DNA from: Ammoniphilus sp. YIM 78166
GTDB lineage: Bacteria > Bacillota > Bacilli > Aneurinibacillales > RAOX-1
Assembly (NCBI RefSeq): GCF_004522215.1
Contig: NZ_SDLR01000005.1
Location: forward strand, 29,086-93,085
DNA length: 64,000 nucleotides
Direction: 5' to 3'
Made by a program: the position numbers and the translations under genes. The notes beneath the pieces are model-generated. The model ran no database searches. It had not been told where the DNA came from and saw only the letters and a list, made by a program, of their open reading frames with translations. Numbering within the stretch: position 1 is the first letter of the stretch; each line of letters opens with the position of its first letter. Of this stretch, positions 3,971 to 26,872 are shown piece after piece.

Positions 3971-4768
3971 GTTGATTCCTCCTTATCAATCTTTTCATCA
4001 TTTTCTATGGGTTAGTGATTTTTTAACCTAGGTGCATGAGGGAGCAATACAATTGGATCTTTGGTTCGTTCGCAAAATGTGCAAAGTTGAACAAACTTCT
4101 CTAGCACATACAGACATTTACTTACACTATCAGAAAAATAATTTCGACCGGAAAAAAGGATACTTCCTTTTCTGATTCCGTAGTTGCATAAGTTACATCA
4201 ATTCTCGATGTGCACGAATTTAAAAGACACCCCTTGGGTTACTGCGACAATCCATAAGGGCGGTCATCGAATGATACCAAATGAAATTCGTTTTCAAGAA
4301 TAGAATGAACTAGTTTATTCCAAACCAATCTACATTGGTTAAAACCTTGGATAAATAAGAGTGTCTTCCGTTTAGGTTCCCTGTTTCTTCCACGCAAATA
4401 TGGGTTCACCCGCCACCTTCAACAAAATATCGCTTTACTAATTAACAATTATTCATTGTATCTTCTTCATCTTTTTTGTTTTTGGTAAATTATATACATT
4501 TTGAATTATACAACTTAATTTATTAAGTGTAAACATAAGTGAATCTATCAGTGAAATACTATTTGTTCGATCAAGAGTGGAGAAACTGTGGTCAAGATTG
4601 GGGAGTTTCTTATATCCTAGGACTAAGCAGAAGGGATGGACTCAAGAGATTATTTCGCCAGCCATGCGTTCGCCTTCTGGGCGATATCGCTGATTTGGTT
4701 CGCTACGCCCTGCCAGTCAATATCCTTGATCTTTTTTAATAGATCCACAAGAGATGTCAGTTGTTCGT

Positions 4769-5002
4769 CTAAAGAGACTCTTTTTTAATTTCATGGTCTG
4801 CCCCTAAATGCTCTAGGCGCTTTAACTCCTCCTCGATGTTCGTGACACGGAAAGCCAAATGATTAACGAGCCCTTCAGAACTCTCGATGGATGGACCGCA
4901 GACGAGGTCCACTTCAACCTCCGGAGACTCCTCGAAATAAAGAAAGCATTGGTAAGTTAAGTGGAAGGATCTCCATCCCGCCAATAGGGGTTCACTTTCC
5001 AC
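4769..5002 (-). pseudogene. VOC/glyoxalase-family fragment
   Basis: 77-aa ORF with VNHLAFRVTNIEEELKRLEHLGA motif typical of VOC domain C-terminus; no complete gene; surrounded by decayed sequence. Confidence 0.3.
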
Positions 5003-5093
5003 AAGCGGTAAATATGCGTAACAATTACTTTCCCCACGGCATAGATCAGGATAGCGAGGATCATTCCCACAATACCTGCGAATGGTCCTGCAG

Positions 5094-5175
5094 TGTTCGC
5101 CAACGGCAAAGCGCTCCGCACTTTACCTTGTAAAAGGGGTCAGACCTACCTGAGGGGGTATCCCCCGAAGCAAGT
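5094..5175 (+). repeat. ~80-bp three-hairpin intergenic repeat, copy R1 (full)
   Basis: cgccaacggcaaagcgctccgcactttaccttgtaaaaggggtcagacctacctgagggggtatcccccgaag; near-identical to copies at 12191-12275 and 59664-59742. Confidence 0.8.
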
Positions 5176-5703
5176 AAGGGTTGAAAGTAAGATGGAAGCC
5201 TTGACCTCCTCGATTGCCGAGATGACGCAAGCGATTCATGGATGGCAGAAGGTGACTTAGCTGGTGGAGACCCTAACTGAATAAACAAATATAACCCTAC
5301 CCAACACAATATGATGGATAGGGTTTTTAGCTTTTAAGAATAAATTCAGACAAATACTAAAATGTATCTTCTTCCCCTACTTTTTTGCGTTTAAAATGAA
5401 TGTACAAAAATAGGAGGTTATCCATTATGCTTTGATAGAACAGGTCCAGTCAGCATTTCCATTCTAACTTCTAGTAAAACTTTTCGATTACGGGCCTCGC
5501 CCTCGCCCCATTAGCATCTTCCCTGCGCTCCGCTAAACAATCTCTCATTTTAGCTCATCATATTTTCTCACATTCCCAATCCAACGAAAGATTCTCCCTA
5601 ACTACAATCTTCGTTATTTATTTTGAATACGTGTAATTATACGTGTTAATATGTATAATATAAGAAGGAGCGGACAAATGAAGGCATATTCTTCAGTGAA
5701 CTA

Positions 5704-5847
5704 ATGAAGCTAGTTCGGGTAAAAGGTGATCACTACCAGTTCAAACACCCAACGAAGCCTGGACTAGTTACCATCCCTCATCCCCAAAAGGACTTTCCCC
5801 TTAGAACACAGAGAAGTATCTTAAAACAACCTGGAATTCAGGGATAG
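5704..5847 (+). CDS. hicA: HicA-family toxin, N-terminally truncated (47 aa; probable pseudogene)
   Basis: MKLVRVKGDHYQFKHPTKPGLVTIPHPQKDFPLRTQRSILKQPGIQG matches HicA C-terminal consensus (LVR.KGSH..KHP...VT.PHP.KDL..T..SILKQAG); an upstream in-frame-shifted ATG at 5678 gives MKAYSSVN-stop, so the first helix appears deleted; sigma-A-like promoter TTGAAT-17-TATAAT region upstream. Confidence 0.5.
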   Translation: MKLVRVKGDHYQFKHPTKPGLVTIPHPQKDFPLRTQRSILKQPGIQG

Positions 5848-5895
5848 ATTTTTTTCAAGAATGTCAATTTATAGTAACACTGGAGGGTTGTTTAT

Positions 5896-6297
5896 ATGAA
5901 GGATCGATACATTTTTCCCGCATTATTGGCGTATGCCGAGGATGGAATCTCTGTAGAGTTTCCGGATCTGCCAGGATGCCTGACCTACGGAGACTCGGAA
6001 GAAGAAGTACTAAGAAAGGCTAAGGAAGCAATGGCTCTTCACCTATACGGTATGGAGCAAGAAGGCGAGTCGATTCCAGAACCTTCAAAATTCAAACTCA
6101 TTGCAACAGAAAATAATCAGGCCGTATTACTCGTAGAAGTATGGATGCCTCCATTTCGTCACGAAATGGAAAACAAAGCCGTAAAGAAAACATTGACCAT
6201 TCCAAAGTGGCTTGATGATTTAGCCCAAGAAAACAACGTAAATTTTTCCCATATACTACAGGATGCTTTGAAGAAGTATCTTGGAGTGAAGGATTAA
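5896..6297 (+). CDS. hicB: HicB-family antitoxin
   Basis: 133 aa; N-terminal HicB/UPF0150 fold pattern (ISVEFPDLPGCLTYGDSEEEVLRKAKEAMALHL) and C-terminal DNA-binding tail; RBS GGAGGG 8 nt upstream; directly follows hicA remnant. Confidence 0.8.
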   Translation: MKDRYIFPALLAYAEDGISVEFPDLPGCLTYGDSEEEVLRKAKEAMALHLYGMEQEGESIPEPSKFKLIATENNQAVLLVEVWMPPFRHEMENKAVKKTLTIPKWLDDLAQENNVNFSHILQDALKKYLGVKD

Positions 6298-6534
6298 TCT
6301 TCTTAGGGCAAAGAATTTGCCTATACAAGGTTGGTTACTGATTCCAAGATGCATATCTTCGGTAGTCCCATATTCCCAGGTAAGCGGAAGCGATTTCCGA
6401 ATTCCTGCATTATTTAACGGAAAGAGGGACAGTCCTCTTTTATAAGTTTATACAATAAGTGGAAATACTCTAGCAAGATAAGTATGTGAAGACGCTATCC
6501 ACTAAAGCCTACCTTCTATTATTTTTGCATGCCC

Positions 6535-6573
6535 TGTTCGTCAACAGCAAAGTGCTCCACACGTTACTTTATG
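6535..6573 (+). repeat. three-hairpin repeat, copy R2 (5' half, degenerate)
   Basis: tgttcgtcaacagcaaagtgctccacacgttacttt aligns with 5' half of the repeat consensus. Confidence 0.5.
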
Positions 6574-7011
6574 ATGAGGGATTGTTCCTCATTCTGCTGC
6601 TACATCCATGATGGATGCGATGTCAAACAACTGACCAATAGTAACAACAGCATCCATTTGAGTTTTCACGGAAGCAGATGAAGCAGGTACATCAAGCTAT
6701 AGTGTCTTGCCATCAGGCTTGTTGAAATACAGAAAATCACGGATTCGTTCTGTTCACGAACTTCCTTTCGTTAGAGGTCAACTGAGGTTAAGTCTGGGGA
6801 AGCGTATTTTCTTTGAGTTTTTGGCAGTGGCGACATAACGGAGAAATAAAAAATGCTCCCAAAAGTAAGGGAAGTTGCTAGACGCAATGATTTCGAATGA
6901 TATCAACAAGAGTATCGAATGCATATTGTTTGTTTACCATGTGAACAGTGAAATCTTCTGCCTTTGGCTGAGTCATGACGAGCTTTTTGCCATTCATCTG
7001 GAGAAACACGA

Positions 7012-7260
7012 CTAGGGCAGTAAAAGCAGTTCGTTTTTAGCGTTCTGAAAAGGATGATTCTGGCCGAGGGATTCAAACAAGGCTGCAGCCTTACTGAATA
7101 GATCTGCATAAGCATCCTCTCCGAAAACGGACTGCTGGGGTCGCATCACTGCAGAGTTTAATTCATTTCGACTTTTGACGCCAATCATTTCTCCAGGACT
7201 ATATAATTCAATGAGACGACGATTTATCTTTTCGATTTCACTTTCCGTAAGATATCTCAT
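7012..7260 (-). pseudogene. Doc/Fic-family (death-on-curing-like) toxin remnant, truncated and active-site degenerate
   Basis: 82 aa aligns with Doc N-terminus (RPQQSVFGEDAYADLFSKAAALFESLGQNHPF) but the Fic motif HPFxDGNKR is replaced by HPFQNAKNE and the ORF stops immediately after; start overlaps upstream ORF stop (ATGA). Confidence 0.5.
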
Positions 7261-7571
7261 CTCTTAACCAAATTCTTAATCGTTTCTTCATAGTTATCTA
7301 GCACATAATCGAAGGCCTGATCTAAGGCAGGATCCTCAAATAGTCTGTCATTCGAGTTATGGTTTTTCTTTTCATCCATCATACTGGGTGTTGAAAGACG
7401 GTCCTCAGCGACAAAGTCAACTCCAGGGCTGGCCACCATTCGACGGAGCATGTTGTACGCTAACAGTATATCGTGTTCAGAGAGTCTGTCTACAAGATAG
7501 TGGAGCTGTTCTTTGCCAATCTGGATTGGCTTTTCTTTACGTACAACCTTTTTTGTCATTTCTACTAACAC
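7257..7571 (-). CDS. 104-aa ORF upstream of and translationally coupled to the Doc-like remnant; possible antitoxin (position only)
   Basis: 104-aa ORF, 4-nt overlap with the Doc-like remnant in the order expected of an antitoxin-toxin operon; family not recognised from sequence. Confidence 0.35.
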   Translation of the reverse strand: MLVEMTKKVVRKEKPIQIGKEQLHYLVDRLSEHDILLAYNMLRRMVASPGVDFVAEDRLSTPSMMDEKKNHNSNDRLFEDPALDQAFDYVLDNYEETIKNLVKR

Positions 7572-7696
7572 ACCTCCATTTCATATAAACAATCATACTA
7601 ATTTATACTTTACTCTCAAGGAATGAACTGAATGATCTAACGTAGATTGAGGGAAAACACTTGATGACAGTGTGAGTAGTACGGTTCATGCCGGCT

Positions 7697-7728
7697 TCTG
7701 GGATACCCCCCAGGTAGGGGTCTGACCT
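7697..7728 (-). repeat. three-hairpin repeat, copy R3a (3' half, inverted orientation)
   Basis: reverse complement ggtcagacccctacctggggggtatccc matches hairpins 2-3 of the repeat. Confidence 0.5.
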
Positions 7729-7770
7729 CAATGTCATCAAGCTATACTACCAATAAATTTGGTTGTGACA

Positions 7771-7803
7771 GTCAACGGCAAACTACTCCACACTTTACCG
7801 TTA
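7771..7803 (+). repeat. three-hairpin repeat, copy R3b (5' half)
   Basis: gtcaacggcaaactactccacactttaccgtt aligns with 5' half. Confidence 0.45.
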
Positions 7804-8001
7804 GCGGATCAAATAAATGAAAAGAGTATTCATAAATAACGATTACCCTTTAACAGCTTCACGTGGAGTGAGGGACAGTTCCTTGTCGCAAAGTAAAGCG
7901 CGAAGCGCTTTACGATTACGAACAGAAAGCTCCTCGTTTCATTCGTTTTGTTTAATTGCGGCTGTCTTCCTCCCATTGAAATGGCGGGCTTGTATCGTGG
8001 T

Positions 8002-8640
8002 CTAGGACCTGCCCTCCATCAGCTTCACCCGGAAGAGGATGACTCGGTCATACTCAAGGAATTCTGAAGGAAGCTCACCCGTTTCGTCATACTGAGTGAC
8101 GAGCTGTTCTCGAAAGATGATACCCTGTTTGTTGTCCTCTAAAACGGCCATGACCGTGAGCGGTTGATTAAGCTTTATTGGTTTAGACATACTGAGCTGA
8201 TGGGTGACACTCCCTCCACGAGAGCCCTTGAAAATGACGTCTTTTTCGGTGGCGCCGATACTCCCTCCATCGATTACGGATGCCCTCATGCGAAGCCAAT
8301 GCTCTTTTTCATCTTCTTGTTCTTTCCAATCATAAGCAAACAGCAACTGACTTTTTTTTCTAATTTCCATCCCCATATCCAGTTCTTGCTCTTGTTTGAC
8401 CCCTTTTTCAAACCTTTCTACAAATGCATACATCGTCGTTACCAGCTCGGTATTTTTGTCGACATCTAATACCTTTACCTGATCAAGCATTAAGCCCGTT
8501 ATAATGCGCTTCGTTTCATCAGACAGGGAGGCTGGCGCGATGGTTGCCACGTGCTCTGGATTGGGTTGTTGCTGACAACCCAGCGTAAACATGAGAAGGA
8601 ATCCCGTGATAATGGGTCTCAGAAAGTTCTTCATTACCAT
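8002..8640 (-). CDS. hypothetical lipoprotein
   Basis: 212 aa; signal peptide with lipobox FTLGC; no recognisable catalytic motifs. Confidence 0.55.
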   Translation of the reverse strand: MVMKNFLRPIITGFLLMFTLGCQQQPNPEHVATIAPASLSDETKRIITGLMLDQVKVLDVDKNTELVTTMYAFVERFEKGVKQEQELDMGMEIRKKSQLLFAYDWKEQEDEKEHWLRMRASVIDGGSIGATEKDVIFKGSRGGSVTHQLSMSKPIKLNQPLTVMAVLEDNKQGIIFREQLVTQYDETGELPSEFLEYDRVILFRVKLMEGRS

Positions 8641-8821
8641 TCTCCTATCGTAATTAATGATACCTCTTGTATAGACGTTCCAGGAATGGAAGAAGTTTCA
8701 CCCACGACTTTTCAGCGCCGCTGTAATCCCACTTTGTGCTCGTCACCACGAAACAACTGTGGGATGAATCTCCGTATGGAGCCATTCTCTGAGTTAAACG
8801 TTTATTTGGCTTCGAAACGGT

Positions 8822-9010
8822 AAGGAGGCTGCGCGCCGCGTTTCGTTACCGCTAGAGATACTACCCTCTGAGCATAATCAATAGCCTTTTCAAACCCGGA
8901 GCCTTCCGCCCATGCTACCCCTATCCCGGCATTAAACGCATCGCCGGCTGCGGTGGTATCCACTCTTTGACTGGATGCGCAGGTGGATGCCGGACCTGCC
9001 CTGCTTCATA
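8822..9010 (-). pseudogene. PfkB/ribokinase-family carbohydrate kinase C-terminal fragment
   Basis: minus-strand translation ...VDTTAAGDAFNAGIGVAWAEGSGFEKAIDYAQRVVSLAVTKRGAQPP carries the PfkB signature-2 (DTTGAGDAF-like) but only ~55 codons remain. Confidence 0.4.
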
Positions 9011-9274
9011 ATAGCTGACTCCTTTCCGTTGTCTCGCAGCGTTCAGCCCGTTCCCTAGCTAGGATACCCGGGTTGGATTGTATAAGAGATATGATTCTTA
9101 GAAGGCGGATGAGTTTTTCTGACAAGGGAGGTACTCTTTCCTATTACCAAATAACGGAAAAATTCTAGAGGGAGGGTGGGGGATCCTTTTTTGTGTGGAA
9201 AAGAAAAAAAAAACTGCAGGTGGCAGGTCGTGGGAGAATAGAGCCTATACACAAGCCCTTTCGACTACTTTCGG

Positions 9275-9320
9275 CTGGGGTCAGACATTCTACCTGAGCG
9301 GGTATACCCCGAAGCGGGCA
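9275..9320 (+). repeat. three-hairpin repeat, copy R4 (3' half)
   Basis: ctggggtcagacattctacctgagcgggtataccccgaagcgggca. Confidence 0.55.
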
Positions 9321-9827
9321 CTGCTCCAAGTCAGGCAGGGCCATGCTATACTTAGCGGTTTCGTCGTCCCTTCTTTGAAGCGTCTCTCCTAATACAGAAA
9401 GGAAGTAGTTCACCCTCATTGGCTGAAGAGATCCTGGAACTTTTACTTCGATGATCTACCTCTTATTTTCTTTGGTTGCGTCAATGTCAATGCCTCTTGC
9501 CCGCTCCCACGCTACCTTGGTTACCGACCCTTGACTGGCCAAATCGTTGACAGTGCACTCATATTGTTTTCTTGATTTATATGAACCTTTGGAGGTTCTT
9601 TTTTCGGTCATTCTAATGTTCTAGCTTAAAATTACCAATCAAGCCGTATGGTCTCTTTTTTCGAGATAAGAACCCATTGGCAGCTAATGACCTGCATACT
9701 GATTAACCTCTAGTTGTGGGGCAGGTGAACCTAGTAGTTCGTTGTTACTTCTCGATCTGTAAGAACGTTCATTTCTTTTAACAATTCAAGTATTCTTTCT
9801 CTTAATGTGGACAAGGATCCCAACCTC

Positions 9828-10046
9828 CTACGAACACGAACAATTGATAAGGTCGTAATTCGAATACCTAGATTCATAATGTTCCACGGCACCTTCTAAA
9901 CTTTGAAAAGATAACCATCCACCGTCTCTTTTGATCTCACCATCCCCTTTATAGGTGGTTTCTTTTTTTCCCTTTACAAATCGGCACTGAGAAAGGTGAA
10001 GTGTGCATCTTTTTGTTGGCTTATCTACGTTCATCCAAAGCATCAA
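9828..10046 (-). CDS. small hypothetical protein (72 aa)
   Basis: strong RBS GAGGAGGG 8 nt upstream of ATG; KGDGEIKRDGGW motif; no family assignment. Confidence 0.4.
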   Translation of the reverse strand: MMLWMNVDKPTKRCTLHLSQCRFVKGKKETTYKGDGEIKRDGGWLSFQSLEGAVEHYESRYSNYDLINCSCS

Positions 10047-10485
10047 AACCCTCCTCTAAATGGTGTAGTTATATTTTACCATTTTATACGAGTTAGCAGA
10101 GCATAGACTTACTCCTTTCTCCTCGTCTAGGATAGATCTCTCAATTAAAGAGAACCTCTTACTACTAAAACCAGTTCTTAATGGATACCAGTTCTTATCC
10201 AGAAACAGAACCTTTCCCCTGCGGAGAGGTTTTTTGTTTTTATGCTATAGCACCCCTCCCCTCTCCCCATTAAGGGGAATCACCTCAACCAAAACCAGTC
10301 TCCAGTCAAAACCGGTTTCGATTGACCACTCCTCTAATGGAGGTTATCGTAAAGTACTTTCTTGCTTTACTCAACAGAGGGACAGTCCCAGTGGCCTTGC
10401 ATGAATGTTACCAACTGGAACAAGTTCAAAAAATTTACATTTGCACTTTGTACTATATTGAAAAAAGGAGAGTAAGGTATCAAAA

Positions 10486-11811
10486 TGACCTTGTTCCCTT
10501 TTTTTTACTTTTATGAGGTTTTTAGTAATTCCCTATTTTGTTCTCATTCCTTCTCTTTGTTTTGTAAGTTAATTCTTTTACCAAAGCGACAGTTCCGAAC
10601 CATGGTTTTTCCTTTTCTAATGGTATAGGGACCTTTTGTCTTCCCTTTGATTTTTTCTTCTTTCTGTTAAGTTCGGTTAATAGCTTCTTACCAGGAAGAA
10701 ACAAATACGTTTGCAATATCCTAAAGAATACCCAAGGTGTTTCTGTCGACTTGGTGATCAATTTTAGGATAGTTGAGAGTCAGAAGGCGATAAGAGCTAG
10801 AAACATTTGATTCCAGATCCCTTGTGGCTTTGTACTCCAAATCTTGGTTAGCTTTAGATGTTGTTTCACCCATTTGAAGAATAATTCGATCATCCACCGA
10901 TTTCGATAAATCTCCATGATTTGTACGTCTGTAAGATCAAATCTTGTCGTTAGGATTCTAAAGGTTTGATCTTTTTCGTCCTTAAATTCAACATACCTTA
11001 CGGGTGTTTTAGATAAACCATACCTTACTTTGGCATCTTGTATAACAGATGGATGAGTAGTTGGATGGTTCTCTAATGTAATTAACCGAAGGTTTTTGGA
11101 GATTCGAACGACAAAGGAGATGTTCTTCCGCTGCCATTCCATGAGATTGTCTTTTGAAGGATACCCTCGATCCATGACATACGTGGCGTCCGCTTCTTCG
11201 ACGAGGAAACTTGAACTCTCATAGTCACTCACCGTTCCTGTGGAAGGAATGATCTTATCCGGGTAGGCTACGTCTGGTGAAACCACAACTAATCTTGTGT
11301 GTATTTTTACTGCATGATGGTCTTTTGAAATGTATGCCCAGTCGCAGAGTTGTTTTGGTAATCTAATTTCAGTAGAGTCCACAATATTCAGGCGACCAAT
11401 TCCACCTGGAAGTCCTTTCTTATCTTCTGTTAGCTGGTTTATGATGGCGACCACTCGAACAAAGAGCTTCTGAATCCACTCGGTGGGTAGTTCATTGATG
11501 CGCCGACATAATTGAGAGCCACTGATTTTTTCCATCCCAATCTCTTTACAAAGTTTAGGATAGGCTCTTAATTTTTCTTCCATATGTGCATAAGAACTCC
11601 ACTGATCTAATTGGGCAGCTACAAAAACTTTCAATAAAGACTTGGTCGTAAGCTTATACTTTCCATAATCTATTAAAGGGCAGTCAAAATCTTCTGTTGG
11701 GAGAAGGGATAAGCATTGACAAATGAGCATTTCTCGACCTATACTTTTACTATTCAATGGGAAAACTCCTTTGTAGAAGACTTGTTTGTTTAAGGGAACA
11801 AAACAAGGTCA
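10486..11811 (-). mobile_element. IS4-family insertion sequence (~1.3 kb) with imperfect terminal inverted repeats
   Basis: left end TGACCTTGTTCCCTT (10486-10500) vs right end reverse-complement TGACCTTGTTTTGTTCCCTT (11792-11811); encloses an IS4 transposase ORF. Confidence 0.5.
10780..11757 (-). CDS. IS4-family DDE transposase (possibly C-terminally frameshifted; downstream ORF 10522-10761 may be its tail)
   Basis: 325 aa; DRGY motif and YRNRWMIELFFKWVKQHLKL C-terminal signature typical of IS4 transposases; stops short of typical length. Confidence 0.8.
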   Translation of the reverse strand: MNSKSIGREMLICQCLSLLPTEDFDCPLIDYGKYKLTTKSLLKVFVAAQLDQWSSYAHMEEKLRAYPKLCKEIGMEKISGSQLCRRINELPTEWIQKLFVRVVAIINQLTEDKKGLPGGIGRLNIVDSTEIRLPKQLCDWAYISKDHHAVKIHTRLVVVSPDVAYPDKIIPSTGTVSDYESSSFLVEEADATYVMDRGYPSKDNLMEWQRKNISFVVRISKNLRLITLENHPTTHPSVIQDAKVRYGLSKTPVRYVEFKDEKDQTFRILTTRFDLTDVQIMEIYRNRWMIELFFKWVKQHLKLTKIWSTKPQGIWNQMFLALIAF

Positions 11812-11892
11812 ACAACTTCTACAATAGGAGTTTTTTTCTTGTGTGTAAATACTAGATTTTGAAAATATGGGATTTATTTAAAGTCGTGCAAG

Positions 11893-11939
11893 GCCACTGG
11901 GTCAGTCCCCTACCTGAGGGGGTATCCCCGAAGTGAGCA
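11893..11939 (+). repeat. three-hairpin repeat, copy R5 (3' half)
   Basis: gccactgggtcagtcccctacctgagggggtatccccgaagtgagca. Confidence 0.6.
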
Positions 11940-12192
11940 TAAGCACCAAACATACTTCTCTCATATTCCCCGGTCCGGCCCTCCTGATAGACAATGGCAT
12001 CACGGTAACGATGCATCGTGTTGATGTCATCTTCCTCCGGGCCCGGTGAATGATACCTTTCGTAATAGGGTGTCCCTTGGTAGGCCGGATTTAGCCTATA
12101 CTTGGCATCGAAAACATATTTATATACCACATCTGAATCTTGTTTTTTCAGTGTGAAAACATTGTCTGGCCTCTGAGGAAGCGTAGGAAAGT
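11940..12192 (-). pseudogene. duplicated internal fragment (~250 bp, ~90% identical) of the McrC-like gene (matches 18043-18295)
   Basis: ORF 11852-12130 encodes VYKYVFDAKYRLNPAYQGTPYYERYHSPGPEEDDINTMHRYRDAIVYQEGR..., nearly identical to residues of the 825-aa ORF; fragment is exactly bounded by repeat copies R5 and R6. Confidence 0.65.
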
Positions 12193-12275
12193 GTTCGCCA
12201 ACGGCAAAGCGCTCCGCGCTTTACCTTGTAAAAGGGGCCAGTCCCCTACCTGAGGGGGTATCCCCGAAGTGAGCA
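12191..12275 (+). repeat. three-hairpin repeat, copy R6 (full)
   Basis: gtgttcgccaacggcaaagcgctccgcgctttaccttgtaaaaggggccagtcccctacctgagggggtatccccgaagtgagca; hairpins aaagcgc-tcc-gcgcttt / agggg-ccagt-cccct / gggg-tat-cccc. Confidence 0.85.
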
Positions 12276-12429
12276 CTGATTTGGCACAAGGTTATAACAA
12301 TTATTCACTTAAAGTCCAATAGAAGAAATTAGCTATCCTTAATGGATAGCTAATTCTTTGATAGGAACAATTTTTGCTATTTGGTAACGATTATTCGATA
12401 AGCTGGGCTGAACATCGCAGTTCTTTTGT

Positions 12430-13782
12430 TCAGCTATTCCCCAAGAATTCTAGGTACTCAATATTGTAGTAATCTAACATTACCTTCCAATTTGCTTTCT
12501 TGTACCCACGGGCAACAGGATCATAGTTCTCATCAACATAAATTAGCCTAAATTTACGATTATCCTCTATTTGCTCACCGTTATAATCGAATACTAGCTT
12601 TGTTTCAATTTCACTTATAGCAGGTGCGTTATCTGTTACGTTTACCAACTCGTAACTAACTAATTTTTTATCTTTAAATATTTCGCGCAACCTACCTGCT
12701 AACTTACCTACTGTTAAATCCTTATCATAATTCGTAGTCATATTGGCAAGATTGCCATAATTGCCAGCTCCTATATAACTAAGATATTGCATAACGGATT
12801 TTTCAGGAGTATCGTCACCGTATTCAGTTAAACTACCGTTGGCAGGTATATCTTTCCCTACTGTTATTTTACGGGGTTTCCAGTCTTCCATAAACTCCCT
12901 TTGCCGTCTACTTTCTTCCCATAACTCCAACGATTTTGCTAACTGTTCGGTTGTTTCTTCTATTGTAGGCGGTTTATATTCTTTCGTAATACCTTTTTTC
13001 CCCTCTTTTATACTTCTAGCCCAATCCGCTAAAGATAACAACGTAGCTAATGCTTTTGCGGAAACTTGAATGTTGCCGTAGCCTAAATCTCTCCCGTGTA
13101 ATATACCGTTTCTATAAGGTAAAGTAATTTCTTCATTTGTAGTTTTTTTTCGGCTCTTACCGAATATTTTTGCTACTGTACCTATCCCACTTTCGTGAGC
13201 TGCGATTGTATCCCAAACGTTAAGGTCTACCTTTTCTGCAAAGAAACCATAACTTTCAAATTCGTTAACAAAGCCATCTATAAGCATTAAAAATAGCGGT
13301 ACACTTGCGTAGTATCTACCACTAAAATGATCGTCTAATGCGTTTATGAGTAAATCTCTGCGTGGTTTAAATTCTTCGATATTCTTTAGGCGAGCTGCAA
13401 GGAAGTTAACATTTTCCCTCTCCGTAAAAAAGCCAATCAATTCCCGTTCAGCATCATCTGGTTTTCCTTCTTCAGCAAGTTTTACGCACTTTTTCATTAA
13501 CTCATGGTTAAGTGTTTCAAACGCTATCCAGCCTTTTTTAGTGAAGAAATGATTAAACCTATCAACTGTATGAGTAAGTTCCTTAAACTTTTTACTTAAA
13601 GTCGGTACATCCTTAAATAACTCTTGGTTAACGGAAGTACCTAAACCAAATTGTTCAGCAATCGCAAACAATTCTTGTAAACCTTGCATTCCTCTAATGT
13701 TTGTTTCCATCTCTTTAATACTATAGTTATCTTTAATTCTTGGTTTATTATTATTCTTTTTTTTATGTTTCTTTTTGGCCAA
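12430..13782 (-). CDS. hypothetical protein (450 aa), Lys-rich N-terminus; last gene of AT-rich three-gene island
   Basis: long ORF in markedly AT-rich DNA (contrast with flanking ~45% GC); no recognisable family motif. Confidence 0.55.
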   Translation of the reverse strand: MAKKKHKKKNNNKPRIKDNYSIKEMETNIRGMQGLQELFAIAEQFGLGTSVNQELFKDVPTLSKKFKELTHTVDRFNHFFTKKGWIAFETLNHELMKKCVKLAEEGKPDDAERELIGFFTERENVNFLAARLKNIEEFKPRRDLLINALDDHFSGRYYASVPLFLMLIDGFVNEFESYGFFAEKVDLNVWDTIAAHESGIGTVAKIFGKSRKKTTNEEITLPYRNGILHGRDLGYGNIQVSAKALATLLSLADWARSIKEGKKGITKEYKPPTIEETTEQLAKSLELWEESRRQREFMEDWKPRKITVGKDIPANGSLTEYGDDTPEKSVMQYLSYIGAGNYGNLANMTTNYDKDLTVGKLAGRLREIFKDKKLVSYELVNVTDNAPAISEIETKLVFDYNGEQIEDNRKFRLIYVDENYDPVARGYKKANWKVMLDYYNIEYLEFLGNS

Positions 13783-13983
13783 TACACTTCCCCCTCAGAT
13801 ATTCCTTGTATATCTTACAAATTATAACAATTTATTTATTTCCCTTCAATTTTTTAGACAAATAAAAAGACTGCCAGTAGGTTATTTTTTTGTCTAAAAT
13901 CAACTTTAAGTAAAGCTCTATTTAATCCATCACTTCAATAAAAGCAAAAAGAGAAGCAGTATCTCTAGCTCCTCCATGTCTAT

Positions 13984-14697
13984 CTATATAGGCCCGATCT
14001 TTGGAAATGTTAAACTGTTGATTATTTTATAATGCCAATATAAATATTCCTTAATATATCCTAAAATGTAAGAATGTTTTATAAAAATATGATTTATTTT
14101 CCCAGAATAATAATCATCCCAAAAACGAGAAGTATATTTGTGATCTGAATGTTGTAAAATTCCATTATATAAATAGTCAAATTCACTATTTTCAAGTAAG
14201 AATCTAATGGATTTATTTCGTTCATCCAAATATCTTACGAACTCTTGGGTAATGTCTCCTTCCTTTTCGTGCAATACAGTAACTTTCAGTCCAATTGAAG
14301 CATCATTATTAATTAATTTCTCCCTGCATAACTTATGAATCCTTGTATAATATATTGAATCTCTTTGGTTAGCAATAATTGATCTATACTCATTTATTAC
14401 ATGTCTTACAGACTCCATATTTCCAATATAATACTTCCCATTATGTTCAAGTATTTCTACCCGTTCTAGAATGGGTAAATATTCATATTTAAGTACAAAA
14501 CAGACTGATTGCGCCATTTCAAAATCATCTAAAATATCCTTATCTGCTTTCTGTTCAAAACGAAAAGAAATATTCCCTGTTAATTTTGTTTTTTGAAAAA
14601 CTGCAGCCTTTTGTATTATGTTATCCACATCTAATTCGGTCTCAATTATCCTTTTTTCTACATCTTGAGGTAATACTATGCTTTCCCCTGAATCCAT
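13984..14697 (-). CDS. hypothetical protein (237 aa); middle gene of AT-rich island
   Basis: ORF co-directional with flanking island genes; no recognisable motifs. Confidence 0.5.
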   Translation of the reverse strand: MDSGESIVLPQDVEKRIIETELDVDNIIQKAAVFQKTKLTGNISFRFEQKADKDILDDFEMAQSVCFVLKYEYLPILERVEILEHNGKYYIGNMESVRHVINEYRSIIANQRDSIYYTRIHKLCREKLINNDASIGLKVTVLHEKEGDITQEFVRYLDERNKSIRFLLENSEFDYLYNGILQHSDHKYTSRFWDDYYSGKINHIFIKHSYILGYIKEYLYWHYKIINSLTFPKIGPI

Positions 14698-14867
14698 TAA
14701 GTTAGCTCCTTCTTCACAAATTCCATTTCATTATAAGGGCTATTCCAGTAATATTTTATATATAATTTCTTTGTTAATAATAATCTCAACTTTTTGCTTT
14801 ACCATCACTTGTGGTACGGTTCACCGTAACTTATGTAAATGAGGTTTTATCTTCTTAACATTTAAAA

Positions 14868-16742
14868 TTAATCACAGCAATTGTGTTTCTTCTCAGTCGT
14901 CAGATCGCCATCGATGAATCCCTGACATTCTAAACAACGAGGAACAACTGATATAAATTCTTCATAATTTTCCCGAATGTTTTGTTCTTTCTTCGTTAAA
15001 TATTTTCTCTTTCCAAAATCCAAATATGAGAACTCGCTTTCTATCTCTTCAAAATTATTTGATGTACATGCTAAAAGTAAATATTGATAATATTTAGCTA
15101 TTTCTTCATACGCTCTTTTAGCTTGGCGTTTTTTTCTTGCTATTACTTGAATGTGTCCTTCGTTCTCTACTAAATATTCCTCAAAAATCTTTCTGTTTTC
15201 AATAAAAAGGCGATTTAAATTTTCATCTTCATTTAACAATAATGAAAATCTAATAAACCCATAAAAAGAATTCGTTTTATGCTTTTTAGTTGCTCCATAA
15301 AAATAAATTTTTTGTGAAATATTAAGATAATCTTGAACATATTTTAAAAGTCCTAATACTTTATCTGTTAAACTAAGTACATCAAGTTTTTCTCCATTAT
15401 CAATTATTTTCACTACATTATATATTTTAGATATCACAAAATCTTCATTTATTGAACCTGCTAAAGGATAATTATTTAACTCATAAGATAAAAATGGTTT
15501 AAAGAAACGATTAAATATTTCTTTAGTTTTTTCATTTTGACTATTGGAAATTTGGCCTAAACCATGCCCCAGAATCGCCCTACTTAAAATTGAAGTTGGT
15601 AGTTGATCATTCTCAATCAGCTCTTTTTCGTCTTCAGTAATTACTACCCCTTGTTCATTTATCCTAATAAACGATTCTTTTACCTTACTATAATCCCCCG
15701 TAACCCATTGAACAGCAATAGACCTCTTAGCAATTATTTGTTTTTCGGCTTTATACTTCTCGTCTCTAGAACGTTTAATTTCTTCATAACTGCCAATTTT
15801 ATTATTAATATATTCCTCAATAGCAGTATGATTACTATCATTCAGTTCATTTTCTTTACCATAATCTGAGTTTACCCAAGCTATTAATGAACTAATTCTA
15901 TGTGCTCCATCTATAACATATATAGAACCATCTAAGTCTTCCCATAAAATAATAGCTGGAATTAATCCGTCATCTAAAAATGTTAAAATTAGCTTTTCTA
16001 ATCTTTCTACAGTCCATTGATTTGTATCTCGTTGAAAAATTGGCTTTCGCAACTGTTCATAAAAAAACTGACCTTTCTCTAATTCTGTTAAATTAAAACT
16101 ACTTCTTCTATCTGATTGAGAAATAGAACTGTTATTATTATCTTCAACATTACTTCTCGGTATTAGGTGCTCTAAATTACACTTTATATTTGTTTTAAAC
16201 ATTTTTTTCCTCACTTCAAAGTATAAGATTTTTTTAAATTGATCTTCTGTAATTTTTTTTTCTAAATATAATATTTGTGCATCTTGAACAATTAAAATAT
16301 TATAAATATACATATTTGCTAATTTATCTATAAAATCTATAAATAAATTTAAAGCAGTTCTCTTATTACCATCTTCGAATGCATGGATATTATGATGAGA
16401 TATAAATAGATTTACAATAAATTCAAGTTCAGAATCAAAATATACTTTTTTAGCAAAAGATGACTCATAGGAATTTCTTTCAGCAAAGATACCTGGCTTA
16501 AAATCCGAATGTTTAATATTAATTATTTGTGCATGTAGTACATATTCATCTATCTGTTCCTGGGTTATACCAAGTTCAACCGGAGTGTAATTATGTACTA
16601 TATTATTTTCAAATACAATTTTAGAGATTTCCACAGAATGCTTAACTTGATACTCGCCACCATCATAGTCCCTTAGATTTTTATATGCTATTTTTTCTAA
16701 AGGCGATATTGCACGGTTTGTAATAATAATTTTTTTATCCAA
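14868..16742 (-). CDS. Doc/Fic-domain - ParB/DndB-like (DGxHR) nuclease-domain fusion protein with C-terminal Cys-rich motif (624 aa)
   Basis: Fic/Doc motif HAFEDGNKRTALNLF (consensus HxFx[DE]GN[GK]R) at ~aa 120; ParB/Srx-superfamily motif YVIDGAHRISSL (DGxHR as in ParB, DndB, DUF262) at ~aa 275; C-terminal CLECQGF...HNCCD; AT-rich. Confidence 0.7.
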   Translation of the reverse strand: MDKKIIITNRAISPLEKIAYKNLRDYDGGEYQVKHSVEISKIVFENNIVHNYTPVELGITQEQIDEYVLHAQIINIKHSDFKPGIFAERNSYESSFAKKVYFDSELEFIVNLFISHHNIHAFEDGNKRTALNLFIDFIDKLANMYIYNILIVQDAQILYLEKKITEDQFKKILYFEVRKKMFKTNIKCNLEHLIPRSNVEDNNNSSISQSDRRSSFNLTELEKGQFFYEQLRKPIFQRDTNQWTVERLEKLILTFLDDGLIPAIILWEDLDGSIYVIDGAHRISSLIAWVNSDYGKENELNDSNHTAIEEYINNKIGSYEEIKRSRDEKYKAEKQIIAKRSIAVQWVTGDYSKVKESFIRINEQGVVITEDEKELIENDQLPTSILSRAILGHGLGQISNSQNEKTKEIFNRFFKPFLSYELNNYPLAGSINEDFVISKIYNVVKIIDNGEKLDVLSLTDKVLGLLKYVQDYLNISQKIYFYGATKKHKTNSFYGFIRFSLLLNEDENLNRLFIENRKIFEEYLVENEGHIQVIARKKRQAKRAYEEIAKYYQYLLLACTSNNFEEIESEFSYLDFGKRKYLTKKEQNIRENYEEFISVVPRCLECQGFIDGDLTTEKKHNCCD

Positions 16743-17294
16743 TTCACACCAATCCCATCAAAAAATATATCTATTGTTAATTCACTTAAACTTTCCTATA
16801 TAGAAAATGCTTCCATTATGATTTATTTTAACAAAACTCAGATATTTTTTCGATTGTTTACTTTTATAGATAACTCATTTAAACAAATATAATTATTAAT
16901 GATTTGGAATGTTGGATTCTTTGCCTGTTTAAAAAGTAGGGCAAATCTAAAAAACCTATAAACAATAAGATATTATTGAGATGATGTACAATAGACAGAG
17001 GAAGTTACAAAGATATCTAATAAATCCATTCGATTAATAATTGAAGATACTATATTAATTATTGTGTAATTGCAACCATAAAAAGAAGATAGAGAAATAT
17101 TAATAACAATTTAAATAAGAAAATTATGATTAAGAAACAACTTTTGGTTCTAAAGAAGGTTTCATAATGTCTTGGAAATTAAGCGATACTAAAATAATCG
17201 ATAAAAAACAGGCTGTGTCTTTAACCAAAGACACAGCTCTTTTAAACCTCATTTACTTATGGTACGGTTCTCCCCTATTAATCCTTAATCTATC

Positions 17295-19772
17295 TCAATC
17301 CACCACATTAACCCTCAACACCCTCCCCGCCAAATCCACTTCCTCCCGATCCAACTCCACCTTCACCTTCCCTCGTCTTCTCTTCTCCCGCCATTCTATT
17401 AAATCTTCTTCCGTTTCTAACCTTAACTCCGCAATCTCCCTTGCACGGTCTAGCATATACTTCGATGTTAAGAGAAACGTGTACACACCATATCCCCCTA
17501 ACTCAATCGGCTCTTTTCTCTCTTCCCACTTACCAATAGTAAATCGAACATAGAGTTCACCATCTGTTCCCCTTCTCGCCGGTCTTTCATAGATCTCCCC
17601 ACGACGAACCACCTGCCAACTCTCTACTCTCCCCACCCTATGAATACCAGAATTTTGTTCACCAAATAAACGTCTCGATTGACACAACCCAATAAACTCA
17701 AGATTGCTTAGCATATGCTGCTTGTCCATTAGATTCTTGAGAGGCATATAATAGATTCGATTGTCTAAACAGATACCAAGTTGTTCCTTATCTCGCAATG
17801 ACCCAATCAACACGTTCTTCCCACTTAATTTATCCTGGTAGTACTCCTTCGTTCCACGAGGTCTTGTCGCTCTCTCATAGGCTTTTTCAGGACTATCTAA
17901 GATCAGCTCATCTAGAAACCGTTCCATTAGCCTAGTTGAGTTTGGTAGGAATGGTAACGCTCCGATGTTTACCTTCTTTATACTTCCATAGAATTGATGT
18001 TCCTCAAATTTTTCTTCATCAGGATAAGGAAACAAGACATACGCACCAAACATACTTCTCTCATACTCCCCGGATCGCCCCTCCTGATAGACGATGGCAT
18101 CCCGGTAGCGATGCATGGTGTTGATGTCATCTTCCTCTGGGCCCGGTGACTGATATCGTTCAAAGTATGGCGTCCCTTGGTAGGCAGGGTTTAATCGATA
18201 CTTGGCATCGAAGACATATTTATATACCACATCTGAATCTTGTTTTTTCAGTGTGAGTACATTGTCTGGCCTCTGAGGAAGCGTAGGAAAGTCTCGACTA
18301 TCTTCGGACGGCAGGGCATTATAAAACAGAGTAAAGGTCTCTCCATTATGAGGATTTCGGTAGGTAACGCTAGCTTTTTTCGATTTATCTAAGGTAATAA
18401 ATAAACCATGGCGGTGAACCCGAATGATGTCCTGCTTCAACAACTCATATTTTTCCTTTAATAAACTATGAATCTTCAGGAAGCACCAATATTCATATAA
18501 CTGAGCAATATCCTTCATGGACAAGCGGAATAAGTCCCCTTGAATAGACAGACCCTTCATCAAGATCAAGTAACTCCGATAAATATCTCGATAGCCGGGT
18601 GCCATTTGTAATACAAGGGTAACTGACATCTGCTTCATCTCACCTAAATCCGAAAGAAAGTCAAACCGTAATAGCCTTCGAATTTGTCCTCGCATCTGTT
18701 CAATTTGATTATGTAAAAGGGGATCCTGGGTTCGATGCTTATCGTTGAGCCGCTGCTGGATTTGTTTCAATTTCATCTCTATTCTCTCAAGTACCCATCG
18801 TACAAAACGATTCTCGTGGGTGTCGAAGTCTATCCTTCTTTTCATCTCGATCAACTTGGTTGGAGAATAGCCTTGTCCATTGATATTGAACAATCCATAT
18901 TGTTGATTCGGAACAAGTAAATGAGGCTTCTTAGCCAGTGCTGCTACATTTTCTTTTCCTGCCCGTTTTACACGATCGGCCCCCACCCATCTTGTTTCAG
19001 AAGCTAACCGATGATGGGGCGCTATTTGAAGTCTCTCAACTGAATGGACCAATTGTTGAAAGAGCTGCTTTAAGATAGCCAGAAACTCAGTTAAACTTTG
19101 GTTTCTAGTTTCCTTCAAGCCAGTTAGTTGATAGGTTTTTCGAAGAAAATCAAAGGACAAGTTATAGATCTGCTCATTAACGTCTTGGAGGATTAATTGG
19201 TAGTCCTTCTTATAATCCATCTTGGAAGGGAATATTTCCAATCGGATTTCAAGGGCTCTTTGGCCTTCCACAAGGATGATGAGCTCCGTATAACCGACTT
19301 CATTTTGAAAATTTAGGACTCCGGTGAGAAGGTCTTTTCCCAAGGGTTTGATCGCTTGACGCAGCAGCACATTGTCATGGTGGAAACCAATGAGTTTCTC
19401 ACTCTTACGTTGGATAACGAGCTGATAGGATTGATTTTCATAAAAGCACGGGAGGATTCTCTCATCACCAAGTTCTACTAATTGATAATGAATAGGAGAG
19501 AAAAGCTGGATCCTCTCTAGCTCAATGGGATAACCAGCCTTAACTACTTCGCATCTCGCCTCCACCCATTCCTGCGCTTTATCACGATGAAGCTGTAACG
19601 ACTCAACGGTTGGATGAAACGGCTTGCCTTGGATGTACAAATCAAAGAGATTTGTTTCGATCTTCAGGAGCTCGGTTTCCTGTTTAAGATAGCCAGAATG
19701 AAGTGAATCCATCTTCCTCAAACCTCCGAAGCATATAGGCGATTTTTCGGGCACTAAGCGGAAACGGAGCAT
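17295..19772 (-). CDS. McrC-like type IV restriction endonuclease subunit (DUF2357-like region plus PD-(D/E)xK nuclease, extra C-terminal domain)
   Basis: 825 aa; D...DAKYR (PD-(D/E)xK-like) motif in VYKYVFDAKYRLNP; overlaps/abuts McrB-like GTPase gene, the conserved McrBC arrangement; true start may be internal Met (19712) given 89-nt overlap. Confidence 0.65.
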   Translation of the reverse strand: MLRFRLVPEKSPICFGGLRKMDSLHSGYLKQETELLKIETNLFDLYIQGKPFHPTVESLQLHRDKAQEWVEARCEVVKAGYPIELERIQLFSPIHYQLVELGDERILPCFYENQSYQLVIQRKSEKLIGFHHDNVLLRQAIKPLGKDLLTGVLNFQNEVGYTELIILVEGQRALEIRLEIFPSKMDYKKDYQLILQDVNEQIYNLSFDFLRKTYQLTGLKETRNQSLTEFLAILKQLFQQLVHSVERLQIAPHHRLASETRWVGADRVKRAGKENVAALAKKPHLLVPNQQYGLFNINGQGYSPTKLIEMKRRIDFDTHENRFVRWVLERIEMKLKQIQQRLNDKHRTQDPLLHNQIEQMRGQIRRLLRFDFLSDLGEMKQMSVTLVLQMAPGYRDIYRSYLILMKGLSIQGDLFRLSMKDIAQLYEYWCFLKIHSLLKEKYELLKQDIIRVHRHGLFITLDKSKKASVTYRNPHNGETFTLFYNALPSEDSRDFPTLPQRPDNVLTLKKQDSDVVYKYVFDAKYRLNPAYQGTPYFERYQSPGPEEDDINTMHRYRDAIVYQEGRSGEYERSMFGAYVLFPYPDEEKFEEHQFYGSIKKVNIGALPFLPNSTRLMERFLDELILDSPEKAYERATRPRGTKEYYQDKLSGKNVLIGSLRDKEQLGICLDNRIYYMPLKNLMDKQHMLSNLEFIGLCQSRRLFGEQNSGIHRVGRVESWQVVRRGEIYERPARRGTDGELYVRFTIGKWEERKEPIELGGYGVYTFLLTSKYMLDRAREIAELRLETEEDLIEWREKRRRGKVKVELDREEVDLAGRVLRVNVVD

Positions 19773-26520: not shown

Positions 26521-26668
26521 AACAAGTTACAACAATAAAAAAGAGACCGACAGTGCTGTAACACTACCGGTCACGTACAACAGACGTTCCCCAACAGGGG
26601 TCGGCTCAATGCTGAAGGAATAGACCACCGAGTTGTCAGCTCACGGGTGGTCTATTTCTTTTTGGTCA
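26521..26668 (+). ncRNA. putative cis-antisense antitoxin sRNA of a type I TA locus (RatA/SR4-like arrangement)
   Basis: near-consensus promoter TTTACA-17-TATAAT (26486-26514), then ~145 nt, ending in GC-rich hairpin atagaccaccgagttgtcagctcacgggtggtctat (26626-26661) followed by TTCTTTTT; 3' end overlaps the 3' end of the convergent toxin ORF. Confidence 0.4.
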
Positions 26669-26762
26669 TGTATGTCAGAATGGCAATGACGACACCAACG
26701 AATGTTAATGTGAACATGCCTAAGTTCAATGCTAAATCTATTGCATCGTATACTGACACCAT
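26652..26762 (-). CDS. BsrG/TxpA-like type I toxin, small hydrophobic peptide (36 aa)
   Basis: MVSVYDAIDLALNLGMFTLTFVGVVIAILTYMTKKK: M-[ST]-V-Y-[DE]-[AS]-L start, single TM helix, poly-Lys tail as in B. subtilis BsrG/TxpA family; strong RBS AAAGGGGGTG 7 nt upstream. Confidence 0.55.
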   Translation of the reverse strand: MVSVYDAIDLALNLGMFTLTFVGVVIAILTYMTKKK

Positions 26763-26872
26763 TTTCTCACCCCCTTTCTAACAGGGATGAGCCGACCACC
26801 CATGAGGAGCCGATTCTATTGTACTTGTTTATTATATCATGATGTCACAGAAGCAAACATACGTTTTGTTTG

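Follow-up and report, generated by a model that had tools for sequence, protein, structure and literature searches.

A Doc–DUF262 fusion protein in a defence island of Ammoniphilus: a candidate single-gene anti-phage protein beside two separate island genes

The stretch of DNA considered here, the window, is 64,000 nt long and comes from Ammoniphilus sp. YIM 78166 (contig NZ_SDLR01000005.1); all coordinates below are positions within it. Three genes that we call A, B and C lie one behind the other on its minus strand. An original prediction, made from the sequence alone, had described three co-directional open reading frames (ORFs) of 624, 237 and 450 aa, set in an AT-rich island between a McrC fragment with an IS4 element on one side and a McrBC-like system on the other, and had taken them for one defence or toxin system. 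The ORFs are exactly as stated and the flanks are as described. The three genes, as we shall argue, are separate, and it is gene A, which joins a Doc-type toxin domain to a DUF262 domain in one polypeptide, that chiefly concerns us.

14868..16742, minus strand: gene A, 624 aa; domain order Doc-like, DUF262 (ParB/Srx-like NTPase), helical, vestigial HNH zinc knuckle
13984..14697, minus strand: gene B, 237 aa, orphan family
12430..13782, minus strand: gene C, 450 aa; N-terminal helical domain and C-terminal NTF2-like domain

Calculated from the window sequence, the G+C (GC) content of gene A is 27.6%, that of gene B 28.7% and that of gene C 35.6%; in the 512 nt upstream of gene A it is 24.6%. 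The neighbouring McrC-like and McrB-like genes stand at 42.9% and 40.8%, and the whole window at 41.8%. The AT-rich island thus holds good as a difference from the flanking genes (27.6–35.6% versus 40.8–42.9%), but not as a uniform block, gene C being clearly less AT-rich than A and B. In the databases, the gene A protein has a 100% match, a 'DUF262 domain-containing protein' of Ammoniphilus sp. YIM 78166, and UniRef labels it a 'GmrSD restriction endonuclease domain-containing protein', which is misleading; the entries for the B and C proteins are hypothetical. Gene A starts with TTG, in agreement with the N-termini of its homologs, and its features are these:

16203..16562, minus strand: Doc/Fic-fold domain, residues ~61–180 of the gene A protein
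16353-16385, minus strand: Doc catalytic motif H120-A-F-E-D-G-N-K-R-T-A130, by direct translation
15627..16052, minus strand: DUF262/GmrSD_N domain, residues 231–372 (Pfam PF03235, 49.1 bits versus a gathering score of 33.2)
16026-16037, minus strand: FQRD motif, invariant in 52 sequences
15897-15911, minus strand: DGAHR motif, invariant in 52 sequences
14949..15605, minus strand: helical middle and C-terminal region, residues ~380–598, common to the ~520-aa DUF262–HNH relatives; helices in the AlphaFold2 (AF2) model
14874..14936, minus strand: zinc knuckle C603xxC606...H620xxC623 (CLECQ...HNCC), an HNH remnant from which the catalytic core, ~18 residues, is deleted

This combination—Doc-type Fic motif, DUF262/ParB-like DGxHR motif and Cys-rich, zinc-binding tail—was the one that the original prediction had singled out as unfamiliar. 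HAFEDGNKRTA, DGAHR and the tail are present where it placed them, the three-part make-up is supported, and the architecture is as unfamiliar as it supposed: PADLOC v2 matches gene A to no system beyond weak domain-level matches, and the literature on DUF262, Doc, Fic and ParB that we searched in full text, a scope that takes in few subscription journals, does not describe it. The profile assignments came out unevenly. GmrSD_N/DUF262 lies above threshold, but for this protein the Fic and DOC_P1 matches lie below their cut-offs.

Residues ~93–190 are matched by Fic (PF02661), by NCBIfam DOC_P1, by a PHROG 'Doc-like toxin' family and by two PADLOC candidate families, at scores to which we return below; across the family, Pfam Fic matches 32 of 52 alignment members at E<=0.01, the best at 1.7e-7. 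In the AF2 model of the protein (pLDDT 86.9), the Doc-like domain has the alpha-helical core fold of Fido proteins, which comprises six helices in Doc. Every one of 37 full-length Doc-fused homologs (35–88% identity) keeps the motif H-x-F-x-(D/N)-(G/A)-N-K-R-T, their hosts being Bacillus, Neobacillus, Clostridium botulinum, C. perfringens, Enterococcus faecalis, Listeria, Vagococcus and Fusobacterium, with others from metagenomes. The published consensus for Doc is HxFx(D/N)(A/G)NKR and that for canonical Fic proteins is HxFx(D/E)GNGR; the Lys that Doc has in place of the Fic Gly reverses the way in which ATP binds, and Doc is thereby a kinase of EF-Tu (PMC4177925). From its own Lys-containing motif, the Doc domain of gene A is predicted to be a kinase, too. 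We conclude that the Doc–DUF262 fusion is real.

The DUF262 domain shares the ParB/Srx fold of the solved DUF262 enzymes, and resembles BrxU, SspE and DndI. Since the Doc motif on the one hand and FQRD and DGxHR on the other are strictly conserved, both activities are under selection. More distant relatives are ~520 aa in length and consist of DUF262 with a C-terminal HNH domain (PF01844) and no N-terminal extension. They align to residues ~187–610 of the gene A protein (26–34% identity; E 1e-57 to 1e-46 by tblastn and phmmer), and the N-terminal Doc region, 184 residues, is absent from them. When the two kinds of protein are aligned jointly, C603, C606, H620 and C623 prove invariant in 52/52 sequences, HNH-bearing relatives included; the catalytic segment '...S(V/I)DH...GG...N(G/A)Q...' is confined to the HNH-type proteins and is cleanly deleted from every Doc-bearing one. 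Pfam HNH and HNH_5 matches are confined to the HNH type as well, the gene A protein has no DUF1524 or HNH match in Pfam, and Doc and an intact HNH are mutually exclusive across the family alignment. The zinc ligands have been kept and the HNH core deleted, so that the 'zinc finger' is a dead HNH nuclease reduced to its zinc scaffold. Read from these alignments, the A family appears to have arisen from standalone DUF262–HNH restriction-like enzymes by an exchange of effectors, in which the DNase was lost and Doc was gained.

The HNH-type relatives are spread over many phyla and occur also on plasmids and in two phages; they have no conserved partner, the largest cluster of flanking genes (22 of 75 loci) being generic ABC ATPases and UvrA. 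Among the phages, the 10-kb filamentous Pseudomonas phage pf8 (MN710383.1, 319–1533) carries one annotated as a 'putative repressor C protein', which is probably a misannotation, and Burkholderia phage KL3 (NC_015266.1, 32040–33182) carries another, gp44. The plasmid records that hold such relatives number 63, and 56 of them are from Acinetobacter. One Doc-bearing protein of 823 aa, from a metagenome (P0055), has a DarT1-associated NADAR domain (residues 2–213, E 9e-86) in front of the Doc–DUF262 core, the Doc motif being intact; this hints at a link between the A family and ADP-ribosylated DNA.

Do the three genes belong together? The original prediction held that they form one system, and counted the absence of joint occurrence elsewhere against itself; that absence is what we found. 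We fetched 9 independent contexts for homologs of A, 3 for B and 4 for C. When the first 99 loci were searched by tblastn, 24, representing ~14 independent contexts, proved to hold a homolog of one of the genes, and none (0/24) to hold homologs of two by reciprocal tblastn: B and C are not found at A-homolog loci, nor the reverse, and the three-gene system is rejected. In the last two contexts fetched for C (L100 and L101), the gene tables have neither a DUF262 gene nor a 237-aa gene beside C. All-against-all blastp of 10 contexts disclosed no recurrent flanking ORF of >=40 aa next to gene A, and gene B has no shared neighbour in four (L083, L087, L094 and the window). The closest relatives occur in different genomes—Neobacillus for A (88%), Bacillus sp. 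ISL-46 for C (88%)—and by blastn the homology extends over single genes only, at 14874–16763 for A (L081) and at 12434–13881 for C (L082, Bacillus sp. ISL-46). The families differ in size, too, that of A, HNH type included, giving >249 matches, that of C >470, and that of B 27 (108 representatives in an exhaustive search); the C family ranges from Bacillota to Bacteroidota and archaea. A hairpin with a T-run follows gene B (13900–13983), and a strong hairpin follows gene C; the A-to-B junction is the sole one that has no convincing terminator. Because there is no co-occurrence and no recurrent neighbour, and because the families differ in size and taxonomic range, we regard 12.4–17.3 kb as three stacked single-gene cassettes. 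The adjacency of A, B and C reflects repeated insertion of such cassettes at one hotspot. For genome scans the lesson is that genes of a defence island do not form an operon by being neighbours, running in one direction and all being AT-rich.

The repeats around gene A, and the regulatory features of the region, are as follows:

17255..17270, minus strand: direct repeat copy 1, GAACCGTACCATAAGT, 24 nt after the McrC-like stop codon; overlaps the inverted-repeat arm 17244–17268
14807..14822, minus strand: direct repeat copy 2, GAACCGTACCACAAGT, just past gene A; directly after the inverted-repeat arm 14823–14847
17212..17237, minus strand: strong terminator-like hairpin and T-run between the McrC-like gene and A; 11-bp stem with 5 GC pairs, then TTTTTT
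16825..16853, minus strand: promoter-like site of gene A, TCGAAA-17-TAAAAT with extended TG, ~80 nt upstream of the start; consensus match only
13821..13849, minus strand: promoter-like site of gene C, TTGAAG-17-TATAAT with TG, within the 99 nt upstream of the gene that are conserved at the Bacillus sp. ISL-46 locus
12326..12356, minus strand: strong hairpin downstream of gene C; RNA fold z-score -4.1, 0/200 shuffles folding as well

The window has two copies, and no more, of the 16-nt direct repeat, GAACCGTACCA(T/C)AAGT; in shuffles, 0.03 matches are expected. A 25-nt inverted repeat has its arms at 17244–17268 and 14823–14847, and together the repeats bound a 2.4-kb unit, 14823–17254, that consists of gene A and its upstream region and nothing else. 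This fits a single-gene cassette inserted between the McrBC-like operon and gene B; the uninserted site, if so, would carry a single GAACCGTACCAYAAGT downstream of the McrC-like gene. Promoter-like sites in the gene A region are not above shuffle expectation in number. Elsewhere, genes of the A family have a GC content of 25–31% whether their host flanks stand at 28% or at 47%; recombinases, serine or tyrosine, or insertion sequence (IS) elements often adjoin homologs of A, B and C, and the E. faecalis homolog of A lies inside an integrative element. In Bacillus inaquosorum (L098, 6001–7878), the A homolog is a lone AT-rich insertion, 26.9% GC versus 43.8% in its flanks, situated directly after groES-groEL and convergent with an NB-ARC/TPR STAND (Avs-like) gene.

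Genes A, B and C sit in a genuine defence island. Upstream of gene A are a McrB-like gene (MrcB_N and AAA_5; PADLOC PDC-M26A, E 2.5e-56) and a McrC-like gene (DUF2357 and PDDEXK_7) and, further upstream beyond this pair, a NERD/zinc-ribbon protein, a PLD-ResIII helicase and a Schlafen-group-3-type (SLFN-type) helicase. Downstream of gene C are a 255-nt McrC fragment and a DDE transposase of the IS4 family. The fragment (11938–12192) copies, at 90% identity, a stretch from within the McrC-like gene (18038–18292), and is bracketed by 41-nt direct repeats (11899–11939 and 12235–12275), which are similar to the inverted repeats that terminate the adjacent IS4-like element (10379–10431 and 11857–11909). 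It seems to be what remains, caught between IS ends, of a second McrC copy that has been destroyed. Homologs of A in other genomes likewise have defence genes among their neighbours: AAA_21 with RloB, HsdR and an NB-ARC STAND gene.

To our knowledge, Doc has so far been treated as a stand-alone toxin, always with Phd, and DUF262 sensors as the partners of DNases. Gene A departs from both habits. Phage P1 Doc is the toxin of a type II toxin–antitoxin system, Phd-Doc, and belongs to the Fic/Fido superfamily; the Doc of gene A, unlike P1 Doc, forms the N-terminal part of a larger protein of 624 aa, is absent from the phage and plasmid records searched, and scores below the curated family cut-offs. 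Phd-Doc is a two-gene operon with an antitoxin, and gene A has no Phd gene with it; upstream we found no Phd-like antitoxin ORF, only spurious ORFs of 20–40 aa. SoFic, a candidate for single-gene defence, is likewise a stand-alone gene with a Fic fold and acts on switch I of EF-Tu by AMPylation; it has no DUF262, and gene A differs in its Doc-type GNKR in place of the canonical GNGR, from which a kinase rather than an AMPylase is predicted. No SoFic model is among the PADLOC matches to the gene A protein.

On the DUF262 side, the standalone DUF262–HNH proteins (~520 aa, uncharacterised) have the same FQR(D/E), DGxHR and CxxC...HxxC residues and are likewise single genes; they keep the HNH core and have no N-terminal extension, whereas the gene A protein has Doc and no core. 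GmrSD, BrxU, SspE and DndI couple DUF262 to a His-Me nuclease, and are type IV or phosphorothioate-sensing enzymes with a DNase effector at the C-terminus; the gene A protein has no DUF1524 or functional nuclease domain, and its putative effector is a protein kinase toxin at the N-terminus. EcoSlfn7 is also a single gene, in which DUF262 is joined to an effector that attacks translation (PMC13056530), as the Doc of gene A would; that effector is a Schlafen tRNA nuclease, not Doc. Menshen NsnA, PD-T4-2 and PtuX have DUF262 without a DUF1524 nuclease, as gene A does (PMC12065111, PMC11980606). These act with partners—NsnB, an ABC ATPase, and NsnC, for instance, or PtuY and PtuZ—but gene A has no conserved partner, and the PADLOC match of its protein to NsnA is weak (E 2.9e-4). 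Gene A does not qualify as a GmrSD-type gene, because it has no nuclease; nor as Phd-Doc, because it has no antitoxin; nor as Menshen, because NsnB and NsnC are missing. The description that suits it best is that of a candidate defence protein, made of one polypeptide, with a DUF262 sensor and a swapped effector.

Domain make-up, conserved motifs, fold, stand-alone occurrence, island setting and mobility are shown for gene A; by analogy with SspE, BrxU and the DUF262–Schlafen fusion, we infer a trigger, a target and a form of autoinhibition for the gene A protein, as well as the defence role itself. In SspE, recognition of a DNA cue by DUF262 leads to GTP hydrolysis, and this to allosteric licensing of the C-terminal nuclease, a sequence termed 'recognize-hydrolyze-activate' (PMC13251355). 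EcoSlfn7, the DUF262–Schlafen fusion, has been validated by experiment as a defence that needs one gene only, and its effector is aimed at translation, not at DNA (PMC13056530). P1 Doc phosphorylates EF-Tu (PMC4177925), and SoFic, a single-gene Fic protein, AMPylates it (bioRxiv 10.64898/2026.07.09.737422). For gene A, the DUF262 module would bind NTP and recognise a phage cue, most likely incoming or modified DNA; hydrolysis of the NTP would drive a conformational switch that frees Doc from autoinhibition; the freed Doc would phosphorylate EF-Tu or another essential GTPase; and the resulting arrest of translation would abort the infection. As a whole, the reading that seems to us the probable one is that the locus comprises three separately acquired, stacked single-gene cassettes, and that gene A is a one-polypeptide candidate anti-phage Doc–DUF262 protein, swapped in its effector and built to license Doc. 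The fuller statement is one we put forward only tentatively: that Doc–DUF262 is an unrecognised single-gene abortive-infection protein, a type IV-restriction-like sensor turned into a Doc/EF-Tu suicide switch, and that C and B are perhaps new single-gene defences, too.

Several points weigh against the probable reading. The Fic and Doc profile scores of the gene A protein are all marginal or below threshold—19.6 bits for PF02661 (gathering score 24) and 21.2 bits for TIGR01550 (cut-off 38.65)—and the Doc assignment was therefore tested by three independent routes. A profile of the A family gives only marginal Fic/Doc matches among PDB chains (E 0.15–0.3), and every Foldseek E-value for the model of the protein is >0.05. 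A Doc toxin so constitutively attached would have to be kept silent without a Phd-like ORF. The repeat motif of the gene A cassette occurs at none of 93 other loci, both repeats, direct and inverted, being seen here only, and as a general attachment site it is unsupported. A weak hairpin without a T-run follows A, and A and B may be co-transcribed in this genome. For every member of the family the defence role rests on context and domain logic, and the target of Doc could be other than EF-Tu.

The alternatives must be measured against the same facts. Gene A might be a selfish addiction module, akin to a toxin–antitoxin system or 'prophage maintenance killer', in which DUF262 serves as cis-antitoxin or DNA-binding autoregulator and stabilises a mobile element, with no part in phage defence. 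'Prophage maintenance killer' is the Joint Genome Institute (JGI) name of some homologs, Doc is the classic addiction toxin of P1 (PMC4177925), the gene travels in small mobile cassettes near recombinases or IS elements and, in E. faecalis, in an integrative element, and SoFic, for its part, also binds its own promoter (bioRxiv 10.64898/2026.07.09.737422). We consider this unlikely, however: among 50,697 phage records and 72,556 plasmid records there is no Doc-fused member, no labile antitoxin partner accompanies the gene, its neighbours are overwhelmingly defence genes, and the ancestral architecture is that of a restriction-like enzyme.

That ancestry might be turned to another account, namely, that gene A encodes an ordinary type IV restriction endonuclease of the GmrSD/BrxU/SspE type, cutting modified phage DNA, with the Doc-like part a structural or regulatory add-on. 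GmrSD_N is above threshold, the fold is similar to that of BrxU, SspE and DndI, residues 187–610 are homologous to DUF262–HNH enzymes, and some proteins of ParB/Srx fold are themselves nucleases (PMC4619093). The protein has no DUF1524 match, however, and of HNH only the zinc ligands remain, the catalytic core being deleted; the strictness of the Doc motif in 37/37 members argues that Doc is the active effector. An ordinary restriction enzyme strikes us, then, as decidedly improbable.

More doubtful still is a Doc-like domain that has been repurposed, or directed at a target outside translation—a phage protein, DUF262 itself or a nucleic-acid end—and that neutralises the phage directly rather than by abortive infection. 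Enzymes of the Fic fold perform AMPylation, UMPylation, phosphocholination and phosphorylation on varied targets (PMC4177925), and the extra DarT1-type NADAR domain of P0055 hints at DNA ADP-ribosylation chemistry. Gene A has the exact Doc kinase variant, however, with Lys at position 8, which has been argued to predict kinase activity (PMC4177925), and EF-Tu is the target both of P1 Doc, the one Doc member to have been studied closely, and of SoFic. Hardly tenable at all is a single three-gene defence or toxin system, in which B and/or C would be antitoxin, sensor or second effector to the Doc fusion: adjacency, common direction, common AT-richness, the want of a strong terminator between A and B, and the look-alike NGIL(Q)H motif of B and C speak for it, but it is contradicted by the ~14 independent contexts without co-occurrence, by the closest A and C homologs lying in different genomes with DNA homology that ends at gene boundaries, by C's own conserved promoter region and differing GC content, by the hairpin and T-run after B, by the direct repeat that encloses A alone, and by a B–C hhalign probability of 0.2%.

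If the effector-swapped reading of gene A is true, several things follow. The family would show clearly that a protein of bacterial immunity can exchange its effector, giving up DNA cleavage for translation arrest, and the dead HNH zinc knuckle would be the fossil of a converted type IV-restriction-like enzyme. It would be the second case, after the DUF262–Schlafen fusion, of DUF262 in the role of general-purpose infection sensor, and it would make testable what DUF262 senses and how a fused toxin stays inactive without an antitoxin. And because the A family occurs in Bacillus, Clostridium botulinum, C. perfringens, Enterococcus faecalis and Listeria, it may affect the phage susceptibility of species that matter in medicine and food.

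Genes B and C are separate island genes. Neither has a PADLOC match, and both had been thought devoid of recognisable domains; this holds for B, but C has an NTF2-like C-terminal domain. Gene B has its own ribosome-binding site, AAGGAG, and encodes the motifs ERAQSVCF, RHxLNEYR, YNGILQHSD (14143–14169) and, at the C-terminus, LTFPKLGPL; several His, Tyr and Arg residues are invariant in its family. It gives no match in Pfam, NCBIfam, PADLOC or PHROG. When 1.84 billion proteins were searched exhaustively with a profile, 108 representatives emerged, all of them single-domain proteins of ~240 aa or fragments; ten distant members belong to no Pfam family, and we detected no relatives beyond the family and no fusions. 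Homologs of B stand at the end of short co-directional arrays of unannotated genes, for example at L087 461–3520 (81/233/264/138 aa) and L094 4468–6711 (helix-turn-helix/226/188 aa). These two arrays are unrelated to each other, and gene B seems to be added at the ends of different small modules.

In gene C, the NTF2-like domain occupies residues ~320–440 (12463–12825) and has the alpha+beta cone fold. The helical N-terminal domain contains PYRNGILHGRD (13087–13119), in which R224-N-G-I-L-H229 (Rx4H) is invariant in 52 sequences; in the model it falls within the helical domain, and it conforms to the HEPN-type motif Rx4-6H in such a domain. C might, perhaps, be a HEPN-like RNase with a ligand- or protein-binding sensor. 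Neither profiles nor fold gave this any support: the probability against neighbouring Abi_C proteins is 0.1%, a PDB sequence-profile search returned only a designed helical protein (E 2.6), and Pfam and PADLOC scans of the 52 members gave scattered weak matches only (DUF2612 in 9, MecA_N in 10). Nor did homology between B and C through their look-alike motifs, YNGILQHSD and YRNGILHGRD, each invariant in its own family, survive comparison (hhalign probability 0.2%).

Genes of the C family recur singly in defence islands. In Bacillus and Priestia they adjoin Abi_C and HNH_2 genes; the one in Pedobacter lies between Mrr, Shedu and a reverse transcriptase, and the one in Moorella follows a type I restriction–modification system. 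In two Bacillaceae loci, an Abi_C (HEPN-type) gene follows the C homolog by 0.6–0.9 kb (L082 9993–10799 and L090 8284–9087), and is 70% identical between them. No Abi_C gene follows gene C in the window, where the McrC fragment and IS element stand instead.

Other features of the window may be mentioned for completeness. From 3970 to 10780, nearly 7 kb contain a single ORF of >=150 aa (8002–8640, lipoprotein-like, 212 aa, no Pfam match), no tRNA and no Rfam match; the GC content rises to 47–51% at 8.5–9.5 kb, and the stretch may represent decayed genes or an unrecognised element. Upstream, the McrB-like and McrC-like ORFs as listed overlap by 89 nt (19684–19772), and the McrC-like gene probably starts in truth at an internal start codon further downstream. 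Finally, where the two helicase genes of this island, PLD and Schlafen-type, leave a space between them, there is a full-length match on the minus strand (26548–26823) to BsrG in Rfam (RF01412; 106 bits versus a gathering score of 55), BsrG being the toxin RNA of a type I toxin–antitoxin system.

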